64,000 nt of DNA from Escherichia phage MRostami-2023e (OQ031495), one strand, 5' to 3'; shown: positions 47,771 through 56,485, numbered from the stretch's first letter. The notes: generated by a model from the letters alone, not told the origin. Translations and numbers: made by a program.

Positions 47771-48352
47771 ATGGCTAGTTTAATTTTTACATATGCCGCT
47801 ATGAATGCTGGTAAGTCTGCTTCATTACTTACTGCCGCACATAACTATAAAGAACGTGGCATGGGTGTATTAGTTCTTAAACCGGCTATTGATACTCGCG
47901 ATTCAAAAGGTGAAATAGTCTCTCGTATTGGTATTCGTCAGGATGCCAATATAATTACAAAAGACATGGATATCTTTGAATTCTATAAATGGGCTGCAGC
48001 ACAAAAGGATATTCACTGTGTATTTGTTGACGAAGCTCAGTTCTTAACTACTGAAAAGGTGTATCAACTTAGTCGTATTGTTGACGTATACAATGTGCCG
48101 GTAATGGCATATGGACTACGAACAGATTTTAAAGGTAATCTATTTGAAGGTTCTCAAGCATTAATGGCTATTGCCGATAAGCTTGTTGAACTTAAAGGTG
48201 TCTGTCATTGTGGTAAAAAGGCCACAATGGTAGCTAGAGTCACGGAAGACGGACTTCCAATTACAGATGGCAGTCAAATTGAAATTGGTGATACCGATAG
48301 ATATGTGTCATTATGCCGGAAGCATTGGAATGATTTGACAGGGTTGTTATAA
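47771..48352 (+). CDS. tk: Thymidine kinase
   Basis: 193 aa (T4 Tk 193 aa); P-loop AMNAGKSASLL. Confidence 0.9.
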   Translation: MASLIFTYAAMNAGKSASLLTAAHNYKERGMGVLVLKPAIDTRDSKGEIVSRIGIRQDANIITKDMDIFEFYKWAAAQKDIHCVFVDEAQFLTTEKVYQLSRIVDVYNVPVMAYGLRTDFKGNLFEGSQALMAIADKLVELKGVCHCGKKATMVARVTEDGLPITDGSQIEIGDTDRYVSLCRKHWNDLTGLL

Positions 48353-48379
48353 ATACTAATATCTAACCAAGAGGTATAT

Positions 48380-49195: not shown

Positions 49196-49288
49196 ATGCT
49201 TTACGATTATACTGGAAAATCTGAAGACGGTGTACTTGAACTTTTACCTGAAAGCGCTGAAGATGATGATATGGTGGTGATGTTTTGT
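49196..49288 (+). CDS. Hypothetical protein, 5' part only (rest N-masked)
   Basis: ATG with SD gagga; runs into N-masked run. Confidence 0.4.
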
Positions 49289-49628
49289 NNNNNNNNNNNN
49301 NNNNNNNNNNNNNNNNNNNNNNNNNNNNNNNNNNNNNNNNNNNNNNNNNNNNNNNNNNNNNNNNNNNNNNNNNNNNNNNNNNNNNNNNNNNNNNNNNNNN
49401 NNNNNNNNNNNNNNNNNNNNNNNNNNNNNNNNNNNNNNNNNNNNNNNNNNNNNNNNNNNNNNNNNNNNNNNNNNNNNNNNNNNNNNNNNNNNNNNNNNNN
49501 NNNNNNNNNNNNNNNNNNNNNNNNNNNNNNNNNNNNNNNNNNNNNNNNNNNNNNNNNNNNNNNNNNNNNNNNNNNNNNNNNNNNNNNNNNNNNNNNNNNN
49601 NNNNNNNNNNNNNNNNNNNNNNNNNNNN
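49289..49628. other. N-masked run (340 nt)
   Basis: run of n. Confidence 1.
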
Positions 49629-49669
49629 CAAGTTGAAGAACTTTATCGACATTTAAAACACAATCGGTA

Positions 49670-49838: not shown

Positions 49839-50014
49839 CCCGTGAACAAGCTAATAAATTGATGGACCTTATCCGTGACTTACGTGAAGCCGATTCAGAT
49901 TTGAATGATGTAGCTTATCATGCGGTAAATGATAACGGAGATTTTTATGAAAATCAGGTTGACGCTTGCCAGAATGCTTTGGTGAATTTTGTTGAAACTT
50001 TAATTGGTGAATAA
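49835..50014 (+). CDS. Hypothetical protein (59 aa)
   Basis: ATGA-coupled; below ORF-track cut-off. Confidence 0.4.
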   Translation: MTREQANKLMDLIRDLREADSDLNDVAYHAVNDNGDFYENQVDACQNALVNFVETLIGE

Positions 50015-50015
50015 T

Positions 50016-50546
50016 ATGAAAACTGTAATTGAAACAACCGAGTTGTTTGGCGATTTATGTATCGAAAAACGTGGTTATGCTTACGTTCTGACACAAGAAG
50101 ATGATGCTGTTACTATTCTTCCTATGGAACTGGACAAGATTTTGAAACTCAATCCGCCCGGCCATGCATCTGTAATTAACATTGATGAAGACCTTCAAGT
50201 TCGTTTTTATCACGGTCTTTATAGTGGGGTTAATATCGAAACAGAAGATGAATGCCTTTCTATCAATAATTGGAAAACATTCGTCACTAAGGTGAAAGAA
50301 TTCATAGAATCTGAAACTGCCAAAAAGGCCAAACTTCAATGGGCTAAATGCCGTAATGCTTTTATTACAAATCAGGACCGCCCTGACTATACAACAGTCC
50401 TAGGCGTTAATCCTTCTTATGAAGACGGTGATGTCGTAGTTATTCGCCAAATTGATGACCTTCGTCAACATATCATTACATTAGACAAAGATGAGGCAGT
50501 TGCTCTTAAAGCTTATCTCGATTCTATTATCCCAACTTTGAAATAA
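50016..50546 (+). CDS. Hypothetical protein (176 aa)
   Basis: ORF track, start at ATG 50016. Confidence 0.6.
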   Translation: MKTVIETTELFGDLCIEKRGYAYVLTQEDDAVTILPMELDKILKLNPPGHASVINIDEDLQVRFYHGLYSGVNIETEDECLSINNWKTFVTKVKEFIESETAKKAKLQWAKCRNAFITNQDRPDYTTVLGVNPSYEDGDVVVIRQIDDLRQHIITLDKDEAVALKAYLDSIIPTLK

Positions 50547-50555
50547 GGAATTATT

Positions 50556-51029
50556 ATGATTATCAATGAAAACTCTTGGCACTTTAAACTTTATGCAGCG
50601 TTCAATAGTACATGGAATCGCCCGAAAACATTATGTGCTTATTTTTGGAAAACGTTAATCCCAGTATTGGCTGTTTCAATTATTGGATTTGCGATTTTAG
50701 CAGCAGTCACAATTATTGGCCAGGAAATTTTAACTAGATTCTTTGTTTTTAGCAGTCTATGGACATTAGTTCCGGCCTCAATTGGCGTAGGCATTTTAAT
50801 GGTAGCAGTCATGGCTTTTATTTCTGTAGGGTTGGTAATTGGCCCGTCTTGGTTGTTAGACAAATATAACGACAGAAAATATTATAAAGAAATTGAGTTC
50901 ATTGCACAAAACCAAGAACGAATTAAAAATGGACTTGAACCTATTGAACGTAAGAAATCATTAATAGGTGAATACCTTAAAGCTCGTAAAGAAAAAGTCT
51001 GTCCTACTCTTGAATATAAGGCTAAATGA
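50556..51029 (+). CDS. Multi-TM membrane protein (157 aa)
   Basis: hydrophobic segments; ORF track. Confidence 0.6.
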   Translation: MIINENSWHFKLYAAFNSTWNRPKTLCAYFWKTLIPVLAVSIIGFAILAAVTIIGQEILTRFFVFSSLWTLVPASIGVGILMVAVMAFISVGLVIGPSWLLDKYNDRKYYKEIEFIAQNQERIKNGLEPIERKKSLIGEYLKARKEKVCPTLEYKAK

Positions 51030-52015
51030 TGAAAACAATTATGAAAGGCTACTTTGGTAGTCACCTTTATGGAACGTCCACTCCTGAATCTGACGTCGAT
51101 TTTAAAGAAATTTATGTCCCTCATGCTCGTGATATCTTGACCGGTAACGTTAAAGAACACATGAGCAAGAACACGAATAACACATCTTCTAAGAACACAA
51201 AAGACGACGTGGACCATGAGTTGTATAGTCTCAAATATTTCTTTAAACTAGCTGCGGATGGTGAAACTGTCGCATTAGATATGCTTCACACTCCACCAAG
51301 CCTAGTAGTTAAATCTGATTTGCCTGATGTATGGAAGTATATTCAAGATAACAGGTCTCGTTTCTATACCACTAACATGAAATCTTATTTAGGGTATGTC
51401 CGTAAGCAAGCTTCTAAATACGGTGTCAAGGGTTCTCGACTGGCTATTCTTCGACAAGCCCTTAAACGTTCTAATGAATGGGGACAATACTTTGATAATG
51501 GTGCAGTAATTCGTTTATCACATATGAAGAATGTTCTGCCTGTAGGTGAATTTGCTTCGTGGGTTGAAACCGAAAACGAGAAAACAGGTAAGCAAACATT
51601 CTATAATCTGTTGGACCGTAAATTCCAAGACACGTTAACCAATAAAGAGTTCAATGCCATCCTGGTTAAACTGGAAGAGAACTACGGTGAACGTGCTCGT
51701 AAGGCAGAAGCTAACGAAGGTATTGACTGGAAAGCATTGAGTCATGCGTGTCGTGGTGGACTTCAATTATTGGAAATTTACAAAACCGGCGACCTGGTTT
51801 ACCCACTTCAGGATGCTCCATTTATTCTCGATGTTAAGCTTGGTAAACATACGTTTAAAACTGTACAAGAATTCCTAGAAGATATCGTTGACCAAGTTGA
51901 ACATGCATCGGAACAAGCCGCTAAGAACGGTATGCAACAAAAAGTAGATATGAGTTTCTGGGATGATTTCCTTGAGCAAGTCTATCTCGAAAATCATAAT
52001 TCTTACTATAAATAA
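51026..52015 (+). CDS. Nucleotidyltransferase-fold protein (pol-beta superfamily signature)
   Basis: GSHLYGTSTPESDVDF = G-S-x(n)-D-x-D motif near N-terminus; 329 aa. Confidence 0.6.
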   Translation: MMKTIMKGYFGSHLYGTSTPESDVDFKEIYVPHARDILTGNVKEHMSKNTNNTSSKNTKDDVDHELYSLKYFFKLAADGETVALDMLHTPPSLVVKSDLPDVWKYIQDNRSRFYTTNMKSYLGYVRKQASKYGVKGSRLAILRQALKRSNEWGQYFDNGAVIRLSHMKNVLPVGEFASWVETENEKTGKQTFYNLLDRKFQDTLTNKEFNAILVKLEENYGERARKAEANEGIDWKALSHACRGGLQLLEIYKTGDLVYPLQDAPFILDVKLGKHTFKTVQEFLEDIVDQVEHASEQAAKNGMQQKVDMSFWDDFLEQVYLENHNSYYK

Positions 52016-52046
52016 ATAGATAAATAACCATTAACTTGAGGTAAAT

Positions 52047-52325
52047 ATGAAAAAATTAGTAATTGGTTTATTCGCAGTAATGATGGCATTCTCTGTTGGT
52101 GCTACCACGGGTGCAGCCAGCGGTGCAGGAGCTGGTGGTAACCAGTCTTCTGGGCCTTCCAATGGTTCGGTAAATGCATCACATTCTCAAGGTATTGAGA
52201 ACATTAAATCAAGCTATATTAATAGCACGGCCGGACAAGCAACTGAAGCATGGTCAAAGGGTCGAGTAGTTACTCACTCCGTATTCTGTGATATGCCTAA
52301 TTATGTTGCTAAGTGCGATAAGTAA
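52047..52325 (+). CDS. Secreted Gly/Ser-rich small protein with two C-terminal Cys
   Basis: Signal peptide MKKLVIGLFAVMMAFSVGA; tataaata at 52007-52014; terminator-like hairpin downstream. Confidence 0.6.
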   Translation: MKKLVIGLFAVMMAFSVGATTGAASGAGAGGNQSSGPSNGSVNASHSQGIENIKSSYINSTAGQATEAWSKGRVVTHSVFCDMPNYVAKCDK

Positions 52326-52329
52326 ATGT

Positions 52330-52349
52330 GGGGACCTTCGGGTCCCTTT
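52330..52349 (+). terminator. Terminator-like hairpin (gggacc-ttcg-ggtccc, short U-run)
   Basis: seen in sequence. Confidence 0.5.
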
Positions 52350-52443
52350 AGGGGGTTAAAATATTTTTAAAAAGTAGTGTACATGCTTTTAGGATATGTT
52401 ATTATAGACCTATCGAAACGAAATGAGTAAATTGGAGAATAAA

Positions 52444-53424
52444 ATGTTCAACGTTCAAATCAAAAAAGGTATCTATCGTAATAACGAAATCTCTGGTTCT
52501 TATGTTGCCACAAAGACCTGGTTCCCAGCAAAGCTTAATCCTGAATGTTCCCACTTAGGTGACGGTAAAATTTTCGTTATGATTGATGGTTCTGAACGTG
52601 GAGTATGGGTCTTCAAATCAGACATCGTAATGGAAGGAGTTGAGACATCACCAGTTGCAGTTGTTGAAAGCACTGAAGATATGAAAACTCGTATCAACAA
52701 ACGCTTTAAAGTAATGAACATGATGACGAATGGCATTATCGATGGCAAAATTCGTTCACTCATTATTTCAGGTGCAGCCGGTATTGGTAAGACGTATTCT
52801 CTGGATAAAGCACTTAATAATGCTAATGATAATGGTTTCATCAAATACAAAAGCATTAATGGTAAAATCTCTGGTATTGGCCTTTACGAACAACTTTGGC
52901 TCAACCGTGATGCAGACAGCGTTCTCTTAATCGATGACGTTGACGTATTCTCAGATATGGACATCTTGAATCTTCTTAAAGCAGCATTAGATACTGGAGA
53001 TAAACGCAAAGTTTGTTGGAGCACTGCGTCATCTTATCTCGATGATAAGGGTATTGATAAAGAATTTGAGTTTGAAGGTACTATCGTTTTCATTACAAAC
53101 GTTGATATCGATAAAGAGTTAGAACGCGGTTCGAAACTTGCTCCACACCTTCAAGCTTTAGTATCTCGCTCAGTGTATCTCGACCTTGGAGTACACTCTA
53201 ATGAAGAGATTATGGTTCGAGTTGAAGATGTAATATTATCTACTGACATGATGCAGAAACGTGGTCTGACTGATGCAGAAACGTATAAAGCATTGTCCTG
53301 GATGAAGGCTAATGTATCTCGTCTTCGCAATGTATCATTACGTACCGCTCTTTATGTAGCAGATTTTATTTCAACTGATAAAGATGGTTGGGAGGAAATC
53401 TCTGAAGTAACTTTACTGAAATAA
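52444..53424 (+). CDS. AAA+/P-loop ATPase (326 aa)
   Basis: Walker A GAAGIGKTYS, Walker B VLLIDDVD; start at ATG with SD ggag. Confidence 0.65.
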   Translation: MFNVQIKKGIYRNNEISGSYVATKTWFPAKLNPECSHLGDGKIFVMIDGSERGVWVFKSDIVMEGVETSPVAVVESTEDMKTRINKRFKVMNMMTNGIIDGKIRSLIISGAAGIGKTYSLDKALNNANDNGFIKYKSINGKISGIGLYEQLWLNRDADSVLLIDDVDVFSDMDILNLLKAALDTGDKRKVCWSTASSYLDDKGIDKEFEFEGTIVFITNVDIDKELERGSKLAPHLQALVSRSVYLDLGVHSNEEIMVRVEDVILSTDMMQKRGLTDAETYKALSWMKANVSRLRNVSLRTALYVADFISTDKDGWEEISEVTLLK

Positions 53425-54498: not shown

Positions 54499-55494
54499 AT
54501 GAGCATTACATCTGATGCGGTAAAACATGAAATTAACGGTTTATGTGCTTCACAGATTAAAGTGTGGTTTAAAGACCATAACGATCGCAGAGCACTTAAT
54601 TATGAACAAATTGCTATCCAAGTTCATCAATTACTGGTTAGTAAATTTGATTTTCATATGCCGTCTGAAATCTATACTAATCTGCCGCGAGCACTTATTA
54701 AAGCGTGTAAAGGTTATGGAAAATCAATGGCTGATGGAATCTTCAGCGCGCTGAATAAACTTAACGTTCTGTCGATGATTAACTCTAACAACATCCTGCG
54801 TAATCTAGGACGTACTGATTTGTTCGGTCGTGAACAGTGTAAAATGCCTTTGAAATGGATTGTTGCTCATCTTAACGAGAACCAAACACGTTTTATGGCC
54901 GTAACAGCACGCTTACAAATGGGCCTAGATCGTCAGATGAACTTTAAAACTCATCCACGTTATTCAGGTTCAACTGACTTTTATAAATGTGAGCTTCAAA
55001 AGGTTGCAGGTAAAACTGTCTTAGTAGTTCGTGTAACGTTTGAAGGACGACGTCAAGGATATTTTGACATAATCGGCTCCGGGCTTAAACATTGCGGATT
55101 TATCGACGAAGTTGATATCAAGCGAGACGGCACCGGATATCGTATTGGGTATGTTTGTACTCTTAAAGAAGAGATTTCAGGACCAGCACCAGGACTAAAA
55201 GACGTTAGATATAAAGACGAGCTCGTTGAAGAAATAAAAGAAGTTGAATATGATATCAACCAAGAAGATGCTCTTAAAGACCTTATTGATGAACTGAACC
55301 AAGACGTTATTCCTGTTCAGAAATTTGAATCAAAACATGCTGAGCAAATCAAATACTTTGAAGCTTTGATTAACGAACTTAATGTAACTATTCAACAGAC
55401 TGACGATGAAATCTCACGATTAGCAGGCTTAAATGGTAAAAATAAAACAGAACGAGCTAATCTTATTCAGGTAGTAAAACTTCTTAAGGAATGA
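54499..55494 (+). CDS. Hypothetical protein with C-terminal coiled coil (331 aa)
   Basis: ORF track. Confidence 0.6.
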   Translation: MSITSDAVKHEINGLCASQIKVWFKDHNDRRALNYEQIAIQVHQLLVSKFDFHMPSEIYTNLPRALIKACKGYGKSMADGIFSALNKLNVLSMINSNNILRNLGRTDLFGREQCKMPLKWIVAHLNENQTRFMAVTARLQMGLDRQMNFKTHPRYSGSTDFYKCELQKVAGKTVLVVRVTFEGRRQGYFDIIGSGLKHCGFIDEVDIKRDGTGYRIGYVCTLKEEISGPAPGLKDVRYKDELVEEIKEVEYDINQEDALKDLIDELNQDVIPVQKFESKHAEQIKYFEALINELNVTIQQTDDEISRLAGLNGKNKTERANLIQVVKLLKE

Positions 55495-55549: not shown

Positions 55550-56485
55550 ATGGCTTTTATTACACGTAAAGAACTTATCAAAGAATTTACCTCGAACGCA
55601 TATACTCCAGGACCTAATCCTATCCGTATGCCTGTAAAGACTCCTGAAGAGATTGAGGAAGTCTGTTCATATTATGGGATTACTTCTCGTAAGTTTACTC
55701 AATTTGAATGCGTTACTAACACACCCGTTAAAGAGTTCATTAAAAATGGTGAGTTCAGCCGTTTATTAGCCAAACAGAAACTTCGTAATTTTTGTATTGG
55801 CGGTGAAGGACAATATTTCGCTAAGCAGTTCCGGAATAACCTTAACAATCTGATGGCCATTGCTTCTCGTATTCGTCCTCAAGCAATTAACATGAAACAT
55901 TTGAAATATACTTACGATAAGTTGGAAATCATGGTTATCAGTGAGAATGAGTTCACTCTTACGTATAAACCTAAGAATGATAACGTTGCTCGTGTATTTC
56001 ACCAAGCGTTGGAAGTTTTAGGTGATAATATCCACCAGATTAAAGCAATTTATTCACGTGAGCTTAATATTATCAACCCCATCAAGAATAAGGGTCATAT
56101 TGCTATCCAGGCTCGTGTATCTATTGGTAAAAAGGTTCCTGCGCCATGGTGGCACAAAGACTCTGAATACTATCAAAATCTTAAAAAGGAAAATGCATTG
56201 TTTGAAGCATCGCTTACTGGAACCCCAATTGAACAGGCCGAAGTCCTAAGTGCTTATTCTACTTCTNNNNNNNNNNNNNNNNNNNNNNNNNNNAAACTAA
56301 AAGTTTCTAATGACCTTCTTCCGGCCGAAGATTACCATTACAATCAAATCAAGGCCACTATGGACCAACTGTCTGTTGAACTTGACAAAGCACAAGCTAA
56401 GCTTCGTGATGCTCAAAGTGTTGTAACGAATCTCCAGTTGCAGTATTCTAAACTTTTTAACGCAATGAATGCATTAAAATCATAA
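55550..56485 (+). CDS. Hypothetical protein with C-terminal coiled coil (311 aa; 27 nt masked)
   Basis: ORF track. Confidence 0.6.
   Translation: MAFITRKELIKEFTSNAYTPGPNPIRMPVKTPEEIEEVCSYYGITSRKFTQFECVTNTPVKEFIKNGEFSRLLAKQKLRNFCIGGEGQYFAKQFRNNLNNLMAIASRIRPQAINMKHLKYTYDKLEIMVISENEFTLTYKPKNDNVARVFHQALEVLGDNIHQIKAIYSRELNIINPIKNKGHIAIQARVSIGKKVPAPWWHKDSEYYQNLKKENALFEASLTGTPIEQAEVLSAYSTSXXXXXXXXXKLKVSNDLLPAEDYHYNQIKATMDQLSVELDKAQAKLRDAQSVVTNLQLQYSKLFNAMNALKS
56267..56293. other. N-masked run (27 nt)
   Basis: run of n. Confidence 1.

Follow-up and report, generated by a model that had tools for sequence, protein, structure and literature searches.

We analysed a stretch of 64,000 nucleotides from Escherichia phage MRostami-2023e (OQ031495), referred to here in its full length as the window, with a focus on three consecutive genes that sit between tk (47771–48352) and nrdC: a gene for a nucleotidyltransferase (NTase), a small open reading frame (ORF) for a secreted protein, and a gene for an AAA+ ATPase. 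All three ORFs are present at the coordinates listed below, in the tk–nrdC block to which a first-pass annotation of this DNA had assigned them. Between positions 50000 and 55500 the window is 99.9% identical in DNA to Escherichia phage vB_EQ1 and ~98% identical to many genomes of Mosigvirus (T4-like Straboviridae), and the source phage is a Mosigvirus, a T4-like phage of E. coli. The gene order of this block, in T4 as in the RefSeq phage APCEc01, is tk, rI.1, rI, ..., mobD.1, (mobD), nrdC.11, nrdC.10, nrdC.9, ..., nrdC, and in T4 the interval between nrdC.11 and nrdC.10 consists of 114 nucleotides (nt) of intergenic DNA with no gene. Because a terminator and a promoter intervene between the NTase unit and the ATPase gene, and because the phyletic distributions of the genes differ, we do not consider the three genes to be one module; our reading, to which we give a probability of about 0.72, is that they are three functionally independent accessory genes in the hyperplastic tk–nrdC early region of a Mosigvirus, with the identities and roles proposed below. 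The features of the interval are:

51026–52015, plus strand: predicted NrdC.11 ortholog, a Pol-beta nucleotidyltransferase of the RlaP family (PF10127), 329 amino acids (aa), or 328 aa from the second ATG
52007–52014, plus strand: TATAAATA, identical to the T4 late-promoter consensus, built from the last NTase codons (TAC TAT AAA TAA)
52047–52325, plus strand: secreted ORFan (phrog_2243), 92 aa, with a predicted Sec signal peptide (residues 1–19), a Gly/Ser/Ala-rich linker and a conserved C-terminal domain
52330–52347, plus strand: terminator-type hairpin GGGGACC-UUCG-GGUCCCU, the stem-loop half of a PeSL/PmSL cassette
52377–52405, plus strand: predicted early/middle promoter for nrdC.10, with GTGTACA (-35-like), TGCTT (Mot-box-like, 52384–52388) and a TG-extended TATTAT (-10, 52400–52405)
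52423–53424, plus strand: predicted NrdC.10 ortholog, an AAA+ ATPase, 333-aa ORF, with ATG 52444 as its probable start (326 aa)

Judged by its sequence and position, the NTase is the ortholog of T4 NrdC.11 and a member of the RlaP family. It matches Pfam RlaP with 49.0 bits (gathering cutoff 23, E value 8.4e-13) and phrog_388 end to end (E 7e-126), and T4-type NrdC.11 proteins, encoded in T4 at the same genomic position, are 78–79% identical to it. Homologs are found in 1,528 phage records, and a PF10127 assignment is precomputed for nearly all of the 240 homologs listed. As a first homolog search returned 120 near-identical proteins, diverse alignments were built instead from profiles of distant phage homologs. 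Among the resulting 121 homologs, G11, S12, D23 and D25 are invariant and D85 is kept in at least 90%, with D or E at this position in the distant DSS3_MAL1 and Ochrobactrum phage proteins; the GS motif and three carboxylates are as in the RlaP family. The first-pass annotation had recognized a pol-beta-type NTase from a GS-x11-DVD signature; the RlaP match agrees with this call, and the motif is indeed present, but its spacer is ten residues rather than eleven.

51056–51100, plus strand: catalytic motif G11-S12, ten residues, D23-V-D25, located by sequence
51272–51286, plus strand: ALDML with the third catalytic carboxylate, D85, located by conservation

An AlphaFold2 (AF2) model built on the 121 diverse homologs (pLDDT 91.9) consists of an NTase domain (residues 3–96) followed by a helical domain that ends in a long C-terminal helix (309–328). 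This predicted layout may correspond to that of the crystal structure of PfRlaP, in which an N-terminal NTase domain is joined to a C-terminal helical domain whose terminal helix packs back on the NTase domain (PMC12776372). The nearest solved folds found by Foldseek are KNTase/ANT(4'), the uncharacterised 3c18 and Hailong HalB, all of them weak matches (E of at least 1.7e-3, TM 0.25–0.38), so that the model supports the NTase fold while placing it at a distance from any solved relative. ANT(4') and 3c18 share the two-domain arrangement of NTase and helical bundle, but differ from the window protein in sequence (9–12% identity, E ~2e-3, TM ~0.25–0.31, no family-level match) and in substrate class. 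When the PDB was searched with the sequences of the NTase and the ATPase and with an NTase profile of four sequences, only chance matches came back, and an NCBIfam search of the proteins gave nothing meaningful.

Downstream of the NTase gene, the hairpin at 52330–52347 has 7 bp and a folding energy of -13.9 kcal/mol (55-nt fold), with a z-score of only -1.0, and is followed by three T only. In 33 of 79 related loci, the NTase gene is likewise followed by a UUCG hairpin, and since at least 14 different stems occur, all of them complementary, we take the hairpin to be real. T4 has GGGAGCC-TTCG-GGCTCCC-T6 followed by GTTTACA...TACTAT. The predicted promoter for nrdC.10 has 9 of 12 matches, with the TG extension; its equivalent in phage VR7 reads GTGTACA...CATAAT, and in 27 of 37 loci the 90 nt before the ATPase gene contain a T4-early -35 motif. 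T4, VR7 and the window all have a terminator and then a promoter between nrdC.11 and nrdC.10. Such pairs have been described by Arbiol, Comeau and Krisch as PeSL (a stem-loop and an early promoter) or, in the TGCTT/TATTAT variant, PmSL, and these cassettes flank and shuffle ORFans in the hyperplastic regions of T4-like phages (PMC2839356, PMC4122927). The window has the elements by which they are recognized in PMC4122927, namely the hairpin, the promoter and the variable ORF, and it resembles them in its GC-rich stem-loop followed by an early promoter, in its hyperplastic surroundings, and in a flanking ORFan that is present or absent between close relatives. What differs is that a single copy of the cassette adjoins the small ORF, with the nrdC.11 stop as the upstream junction; we infer that recombination took place at this site.

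The first-pass annotation had given the 92-aa protein a terminator of its own. The hairpin exists, but a UUCG terminator directly follows the NTase stop both in T4 and in L097, a Mosigvirus with an NTase 97% identical to that of the window, and neither phage has the small ORF. The hairpin is therefore best described as the putative nrdC.11 terminator, upstream of which the small ORF has been inserted, and Acj9 has an unrelated ORF in the same slot. In VR7 (L010, 2198–3099), small ORF100c, ORF099c and ORF098c take the place of nrdC.10, and the GTGTACA promoter that elsewhere precedes nrdC.10 precedes, and by prediction drives, ORF098c, an arrangement that illustrates cassette-wise replacement.

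The small ORF begins at ATG 52047, with the Shine–Dalgarno sequence GAGG at 52038–52041. Its signal peptide, which was judged by inspection, consists of MKK followed by LVIGLFAVMMAFSVGA (a hydrophobic core of 16 residues, mean Kyte–Doolittle value 2.4) and a cleavage site between SVGA and TT, with V-G-A before T20 and no lipobox Cys. In the stretch that follows, 18 of 26 residues are Gly, Ser or Ala, and two Cys lie near the C terminus, in line with the original description of a secreted, Gly/Ser-rich protein. Homologs are present in 102 phage records, all of them Mosigvirus or Gaprivervirus, and they form a single cluster among 1.84 billion representatives, with no relatives outside these two phage genera. 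The homolog in VR7, a Gaprivervirus, retains both Cys and the signal peptide as well as the core SHSQGIENIKSSY...EAW.KGRVVT.SVFC, and the Gly/Ser linker differs in length between homologs. The ORF thus appears to encode a real, lineage-restricted protein with a Sec signal peptide. We propose that the ORF arrived through an insertion that placed it between the nrdC.11 stop and the terminator, beside the PeSL-type terminator/promoter cassette, and that it would be co-transcribed with nrdC.11 and possibly also transcribed late from the junction TATAAATA. As for its role, an envelope- or periplasm-acting moron is a guess, and we hold any specific function to be improbable.

The third gene, whose ORF extends from 52423, probably starts 21 nt further downstream, at ATG 52444. 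This codon is preceded by GGAG (52434–52437, six bases upstream), whereas ATG 52423 has no Shine–Dalgarno sequence, and it agrees with T4, with the RefSeq annotation and with the PHROG alignment. T4 NrdC.10 is 78% identical, lies at the same position behind the same terminator–promoter arrangement and shows no material difference, and the ORF at 52444–53424 is its predicted ortholog; phrog_1250 (unknown function) matches it end to end. Domain calls of NTase and AAA type for T4 ORFs were published in 2006, when nrdC.10 was noted as a conserved ORF that weakly matches AAA (PMC1524935). In our Pfam searches, the protein and 121 family members gave generic P-loop matches only, all sub-threshold. 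Both Walker motifs reported by the first-pass annotation are present, each with residues that are invariant in the 121 homologs, and the other elements expected of the AAA+ superfamily can be placed as well, namely sensor 1 in the alpha/beta core, sensor 2 in the helical lid, and an arginine finger:

Residues 9–71, N-terminal beta domain; 84–106, long helix; 112–254, AAA+ core; 260–331, helical lid
52771–52800, plus strand: Walker A, GAAGIGKTYS, with G120 and K123 invariant in 121 homologs
52924–52944, plus strand: Walker B, LLIDDVD, with D171, D172 and D174 all invariant in 121 homologs
53086–53100, plus strand: sensor-1 strand, VFITN, with N226 in at least 90% of homologs and a strand at E220–225 in the model
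53161–53172, plus strand: VSRS, with R249, in at least 90% of homologs, as a candidate arginine finger on account of its position
53335–53346, plus strand: SLRT, with candidate sensor-2 R307 in the lid, S305 and R307 in at least 90% of homologs and a helix at H306–318

The model of NrdC.10 (pLDDT 95) has a five-strand N-terminal beta domain, a four-helix lid and, between helix 3 and the sensor-1 strand, a hairpin-like strand–helix–strand insert (residues 196–216). Its best structural neighbours are AAA+ clades with an insert before sensor 1, in a gradient too flat for assignment to any one clade. The alpha/beta core, the lid, the motifs and the insert are shared with MoxR-type NorQ/CbbQ, MCM, sigma-54 activators and HslU, but identity to these is only 10–17%, and no curated family matches. 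NrdC.10 also differs from the insert-bearing clades in its Walker B (DD, where they have DE) and in its unique five-strand N-terminal domain; it has no VWA partner and no sigma-54 or DNA-binding domain, and its family is restricted to phages. A match to HTH_37 in the lid (E 0.0016, below cutoff) was rejected, as it occurs in only 1 of 121 members.

Phage records with a member of the NrdC.10 family number 1,311; they include Ackermannviridae (VAP7), KVP40-like phages and the RaK2/121Q jumbo phages, the last with homologs that are without the N-terminal domain. At least 485 IMG/VR contigs carry a member as well. A scan of 185,579 species genomes with one peptide pattern gave 29 matches, all in metagenome bins and none in an isolate. 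Overall, over 1,300 sequenced phages from three or more lineages (Straboviridae, Ackermannviridae and RaK2-like jumbo phages) belong to the clade, as do environmental contigs in the hundreds. Within one environmental clade, the gene for a UvsW-like helicase is found at most 3 kb downstream in 33 of 55 loci, with UvsX upstream in 24 and gp32 upstream in 18, a context that hints at a role in DNA transactions. We tentatively propose, at clearly less than even odds, that NrdC.10 assembles into a ring and, driven by ATP, serves as a remodeller or translocase whose substrate is nucleic acid or the proteins of replication and recombination. It is less likely again that the family is a phage-restricted clade of AAA+ motors that aids T4-type recombination-dependent replication (UvsW, UvsX, gp32), for example as a loader or remodeller, and that was missed because it is dispensable in laboratory T4. 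At two environmental loci (L085, 1163–3076; L038, 1853–3385), the UvsW-like helicase and RecA/UvsX genes beside NrdC.10 homologs are much longer than the medians of their families; the long helicase has a sub-threshold Pfam Intein_splicing match (23.9 bits, cutoff 35.8), and the suggestion of an intein in the RecA/UvsX gene comes from its extra length only.

The role of NrdC.11 can be approached through its bacterial relatives. Two Pseudomonas RlaP enzymes, PfRlaP and PaRlaP, were characterised in a preprint of December 2025 (PMC12776372). Bacterial RlaP adds one or two NMP to an RNA 3'-OH, with Mn2+ preferred and with neither DNA nor protein as substrate; its preferred substrate is the broken end of a mimic of cleaved tRNA, and it improves the aminoacylation of ligated tRNA that is short of one nucleotide of the anticodon loop (PMC12776372). 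The same study counts T4 NrdC.11 in the family, as part of its cluster 5, and proposes RlaP as an antidote to RloC-like nucleases, which excise a nucleotide after cutting tRNA. The same prediction was made in PMC7824862, where the distribution of RlaP in jumbo phages mirrors that of RNA ligases. The first-pass annotation had described the functions of these genes as unknown, which is out of date for the NTase, now part of an RNA-repair family (PMC12776372).

Both polynucleotide kinase/phosphatase (Pnk) and RNA ligase 1 (Rnl1) are encoded by the near-identical phage vB_EQ1, and Rnl1 is a 5'-phosphate RNA ligase, a type directly compatible with the products of RlaP. Across phage records, the NTase tracks Rnl1 by genus, including genera in which only a subset of phages carries it (Vibrio, Klebsiella), as seen in the numbers of NTase, Rnl1 and T4-type portal matches:

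Escherichia: NTase 617, Rnl1 636, portal 632
Klebsiella: NTase 286, Rnl1 287, portal 321
Shigella: NTase 83, Rnl1 83, portal 89
Aeromonas: NTase 75, Rnl1 77, portal 80
Acinetobacter: NTase 69, Rnl1 69, portal 71
Enterobacter: NTase 56, Rnl1 56, portal 58
Vibrio: NTase 59, Rnl1 54, portal 133

Synechococcus phages have 382 portal matches, yet they are outside the top ten genera for both NTase and Rnl1. In 79 viral loci, tRNA clusters lie within 8 kb of the NTase gene in 7, and its conserved neighbours are those of ordinary T4 synteny (tk, rI, mobD.1-type genes). A distant NrdC.11-like NTase of DSS3_MAL1 (L006, 1763–10921) is encoded inside a cluster of ~18 tRNA genes and a phage-encoded tmRNA; in other distant phages, the NTase gene is near a Ro60 homolog in one and 4 kb from a CCA-adding enzyme in another. 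The tallies, the presence of Pnk and Rnl1, and these contexts are consistent with a role in RNA repair. In such a pathway, the phage polynucleotide kinase/phosphatase would first strip the 2',3'-cyclic or 3' phosphate from broken RNA, NrdC.11 would then add one or two untemplated nucleotides to the 3'-OH, above all of tRNA 5' halves, and Rnl1 would reseal a tRNA left short of a nucleotide by a wobble-excising anticodon nuclease of the RloC type. By analogy with the bacterial members, NrdC.11 probably acts on RNA 3' ends; that it serves specifically against RloC is plausible, at slightly less than even odds. Such a role would in effect be counter-defence against tRNA-cutting nucleases.

Several points weigh against these interpretations. 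The RlaP activity was shown for two Pseudomonas enzymes (PMC12776372); these belong to cluster 1a, whereas T4 NrdC.11 belongs to cluster 5. As RlaP takes any NTP, the correct nucleotide would be restored in only a fraction of cases (PMC12776372). The Pfam match spans residues 7–152 only, that is, positions 23–148 of a profile of 249, and a beta insertion (residues 177–201) in the C-terminal domain is specific to the phage clade. The Foldseek matches are weak, as noted above, and the ranking was made without the PfRlaP crystal structure. The tallies count phage records by genus and not by genome, the co-distribution of NTase and Rnl1 is partly trivial because both are near-core in enteric Straboviridae, and no operon links the NTase to Pnk or Rnl1 in T4-like phages. 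The UvsW/UvsX/gp32 neighbourhood of NrdC.10 comes from one lineage (pairwise identity 44–100%), does not hold in T4, VAP7 or RaK2, and may be inherited gene order. Finally, no feature of the small ORF indicates a specific function.

For the small ORF, a more specific proposal is that of a microcin-like, or a lysis- or superinfection-related, periplasmic effector expressed late from its own promoter. The exact TATAAATA at 52007, on which the first-pass annotation had based a late-promoter-driven peptide, is well placed, ending 32 nt before an ATG with a good Shine–Dalgarno sequence; it is found in the Mosigviruses that bear the ORF, while those without it have TATAAATG (the NTase stop region of both L097 and T4 reads TATAAATG(A)), and the Sec signal, the Gly-rich region and the C-terminal Cys pair would suit such an effector. 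The frequency of the motif, however, is not significant: the window has 13 copies of the octamer where 8.0 ± 2.8 are expected, a number reached by 6 of 100 shuffles, and a single copy is not beyond chance. The VR7 homolog has no TATAAATA upstream and instead has TGCTTCA-12 nt-TATAGT, a middle promoter of the MotA type, and as no terminator lies between nrdC.11 and the small ORF, early/middle expression by read-through is expected. A resemblance to microcin V (Gly-rich, EAW, C-terminal Cys pair) was rejected as homology, pairwise BLAST with a colicin V sequence giving an E value of 8; matches to YbgS and JUQZ were likewise rejected as weak, below cutoff and compositional, there being no relatives among the 1.84 billion representatives, and the homologs are confined to two phage genera. 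A late promoter for the small ORF is thus possible but unproven, and we consider the late effector improbable. A second exact TATAAATA, at 48348–48355, overlaps the stop of tk just upstream of the lysis-inhibition genes rI.1/rI, and like the copy at 52007 it is composed of terminal codons. At the level of the whole interval, the NTase, the secreted peptide and the ATPase, perhaps with the membrane protein encoded just upstream, might form one cooperating defence or anti-defence operon, a grouping that the first-pass annotation had implied for the NTase and the ATPase. In favour of this, the genes lie side by side on one strand, the stop of the membrane-protein gene overlaps the NTase start, and the ATPase accompanies the NTase in 37 of 79 NTase loci, as it does in T4 and Acj9. 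The conserved terminator hairpin and the promoter nevertheless split the NTase unit from the ATPase, and their distributions differ: 42 of the 79 loci are without the ATPase, and in the others the two genes are -28 to 2269 nt apart; among 80 diverse ATPase loci, an NTase gene occurs within 8 kb in only 3; VR7 combines NTase and small ORF but has no ATPase; VAP7, RaK2 and KVP40-like phages have the ATPase alone; and the peptide is missing in T4 and in L097. PADLOC defence models gave no match to the proteins save a chance-level SspF for the ATPase (E 0.022). Phyletic data therefore largely refute a single operon, which we regard as very improbable, and the adjacency of NTase and ATPase in T4, Acj9 and the window phage is one of shared ancestry within part of the Straboviridae.

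The assignments of the individual enzymes have their own competitors. The NTase could be a Pol-beta enzyme of another kind, with no part in RNA repair: an aminoglycoside-type small-molecule nucleotidyltransferase, an MNT-like protein AMPylase or antitoxin, a synthase of oligonucleotide signals (Hailong HalB, CD-NTases) or a repair enzyme for the CCA end of tRNA. The closest solved folds, listed above, and a faint NCBIfam match to MntA (E 0.077) would fit with this, as would the restriction of demonstrated RlaP activity to bacterial members. Yet those structural matches reflect the common NTase core, the MntA score is 12.9 bits for a cutoff of 60, and RlaP is the sole family above its curated threshold. 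Bacterial RlaP does not label proteins or DNA (PMC12776372), a separate CCA-adding enzyme is present alongside the NTase gene in some phages, and neither HEPN nor any other partner gene is conserved beside the NTase in the 79 viral loci. We thus judge another NTase type to be unlikely and retain the RNA-repair assignment; no homology to unrelated housekeeping enzymes, which the first-pass annotation had named as the contrary outcome, was found. For NrdC.10, a MoxR/NorQ-like activase or chaperone for a phage enzyme, for example in the cofactor loading of the ribonucleotide reductase encoded nearby, is suggested by the position of the gene inside the nrdC block of T4-like phages and by a KVP40-like phage in which it comes right after nrdA-nrdB-glutaredoxin. 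This nrd neighbourhood may, however, be ancestral synteny; the VWA-domain partner that is usual for MoxR is not beside the ATPase in any locus examined (80 loci included), and the window ATPase has no AAA_5 match, with weak ones in only 12 of 121 members. We give this activase only a slim chance.

Immediately upstream of the three genes lies one further feature, given for context:

50556–51029, plus strand: 157-aa membrane protein (phrog_944), in the place of the homing endonuclease gene mobD of T4

Its stop overlaps the start of the NTase gene (ATGA), which suggests translational coupling; a phrog_944 homolog precedes the NTase gene in 44 of 79 related loci, 12 of which show the 4-nt overlap. 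T4 mobD, at the same slot, encodes an HNH homing endonuclease. The MobD.1 ortholog (50004–50546), an annotated two-domain protein just upstream of the three-gene interval, has the Pfam domains T4_y05I_N (E 4e-41) and T4_y05I_C (E 1e-19), described as a "putative transcription factor". Further downstream, no paralogy was detectable between the ~320-aa ORFs at 54499–55494 and 55550–56485. Runs of N (X in translation), masked or unsequenced, break ORFs at 49285–49630 and ~56250–56276. It should be noted that many GenBank records name NrdC.11, NrdC.10 and their neighbours "thioredoxin", which looks like an error spread from the nrdC.x gene names, and that one RefSeq record calls a 59-aa ORF "helicase loader".

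As genes, those described here are orthologs of long-catalogued and annotated T4 ORFs and are already known. Based on our analysis, we advise against interpreting NTase and ATPase together as a paired defence/anti-defence module. The small ORF provides a clean example of the gain of an ORFan beside a terminator/promoter cassette, and NrdC.10 is among the more widespread phage AAA+ proteins of unknown function. If the proposed role of NrdC.11 is true, T4-like phages would have a nucleotide-restoring step besides Pnk and Rnl1, and this step could permit them to survive anticodon nucleases of the RloC type.

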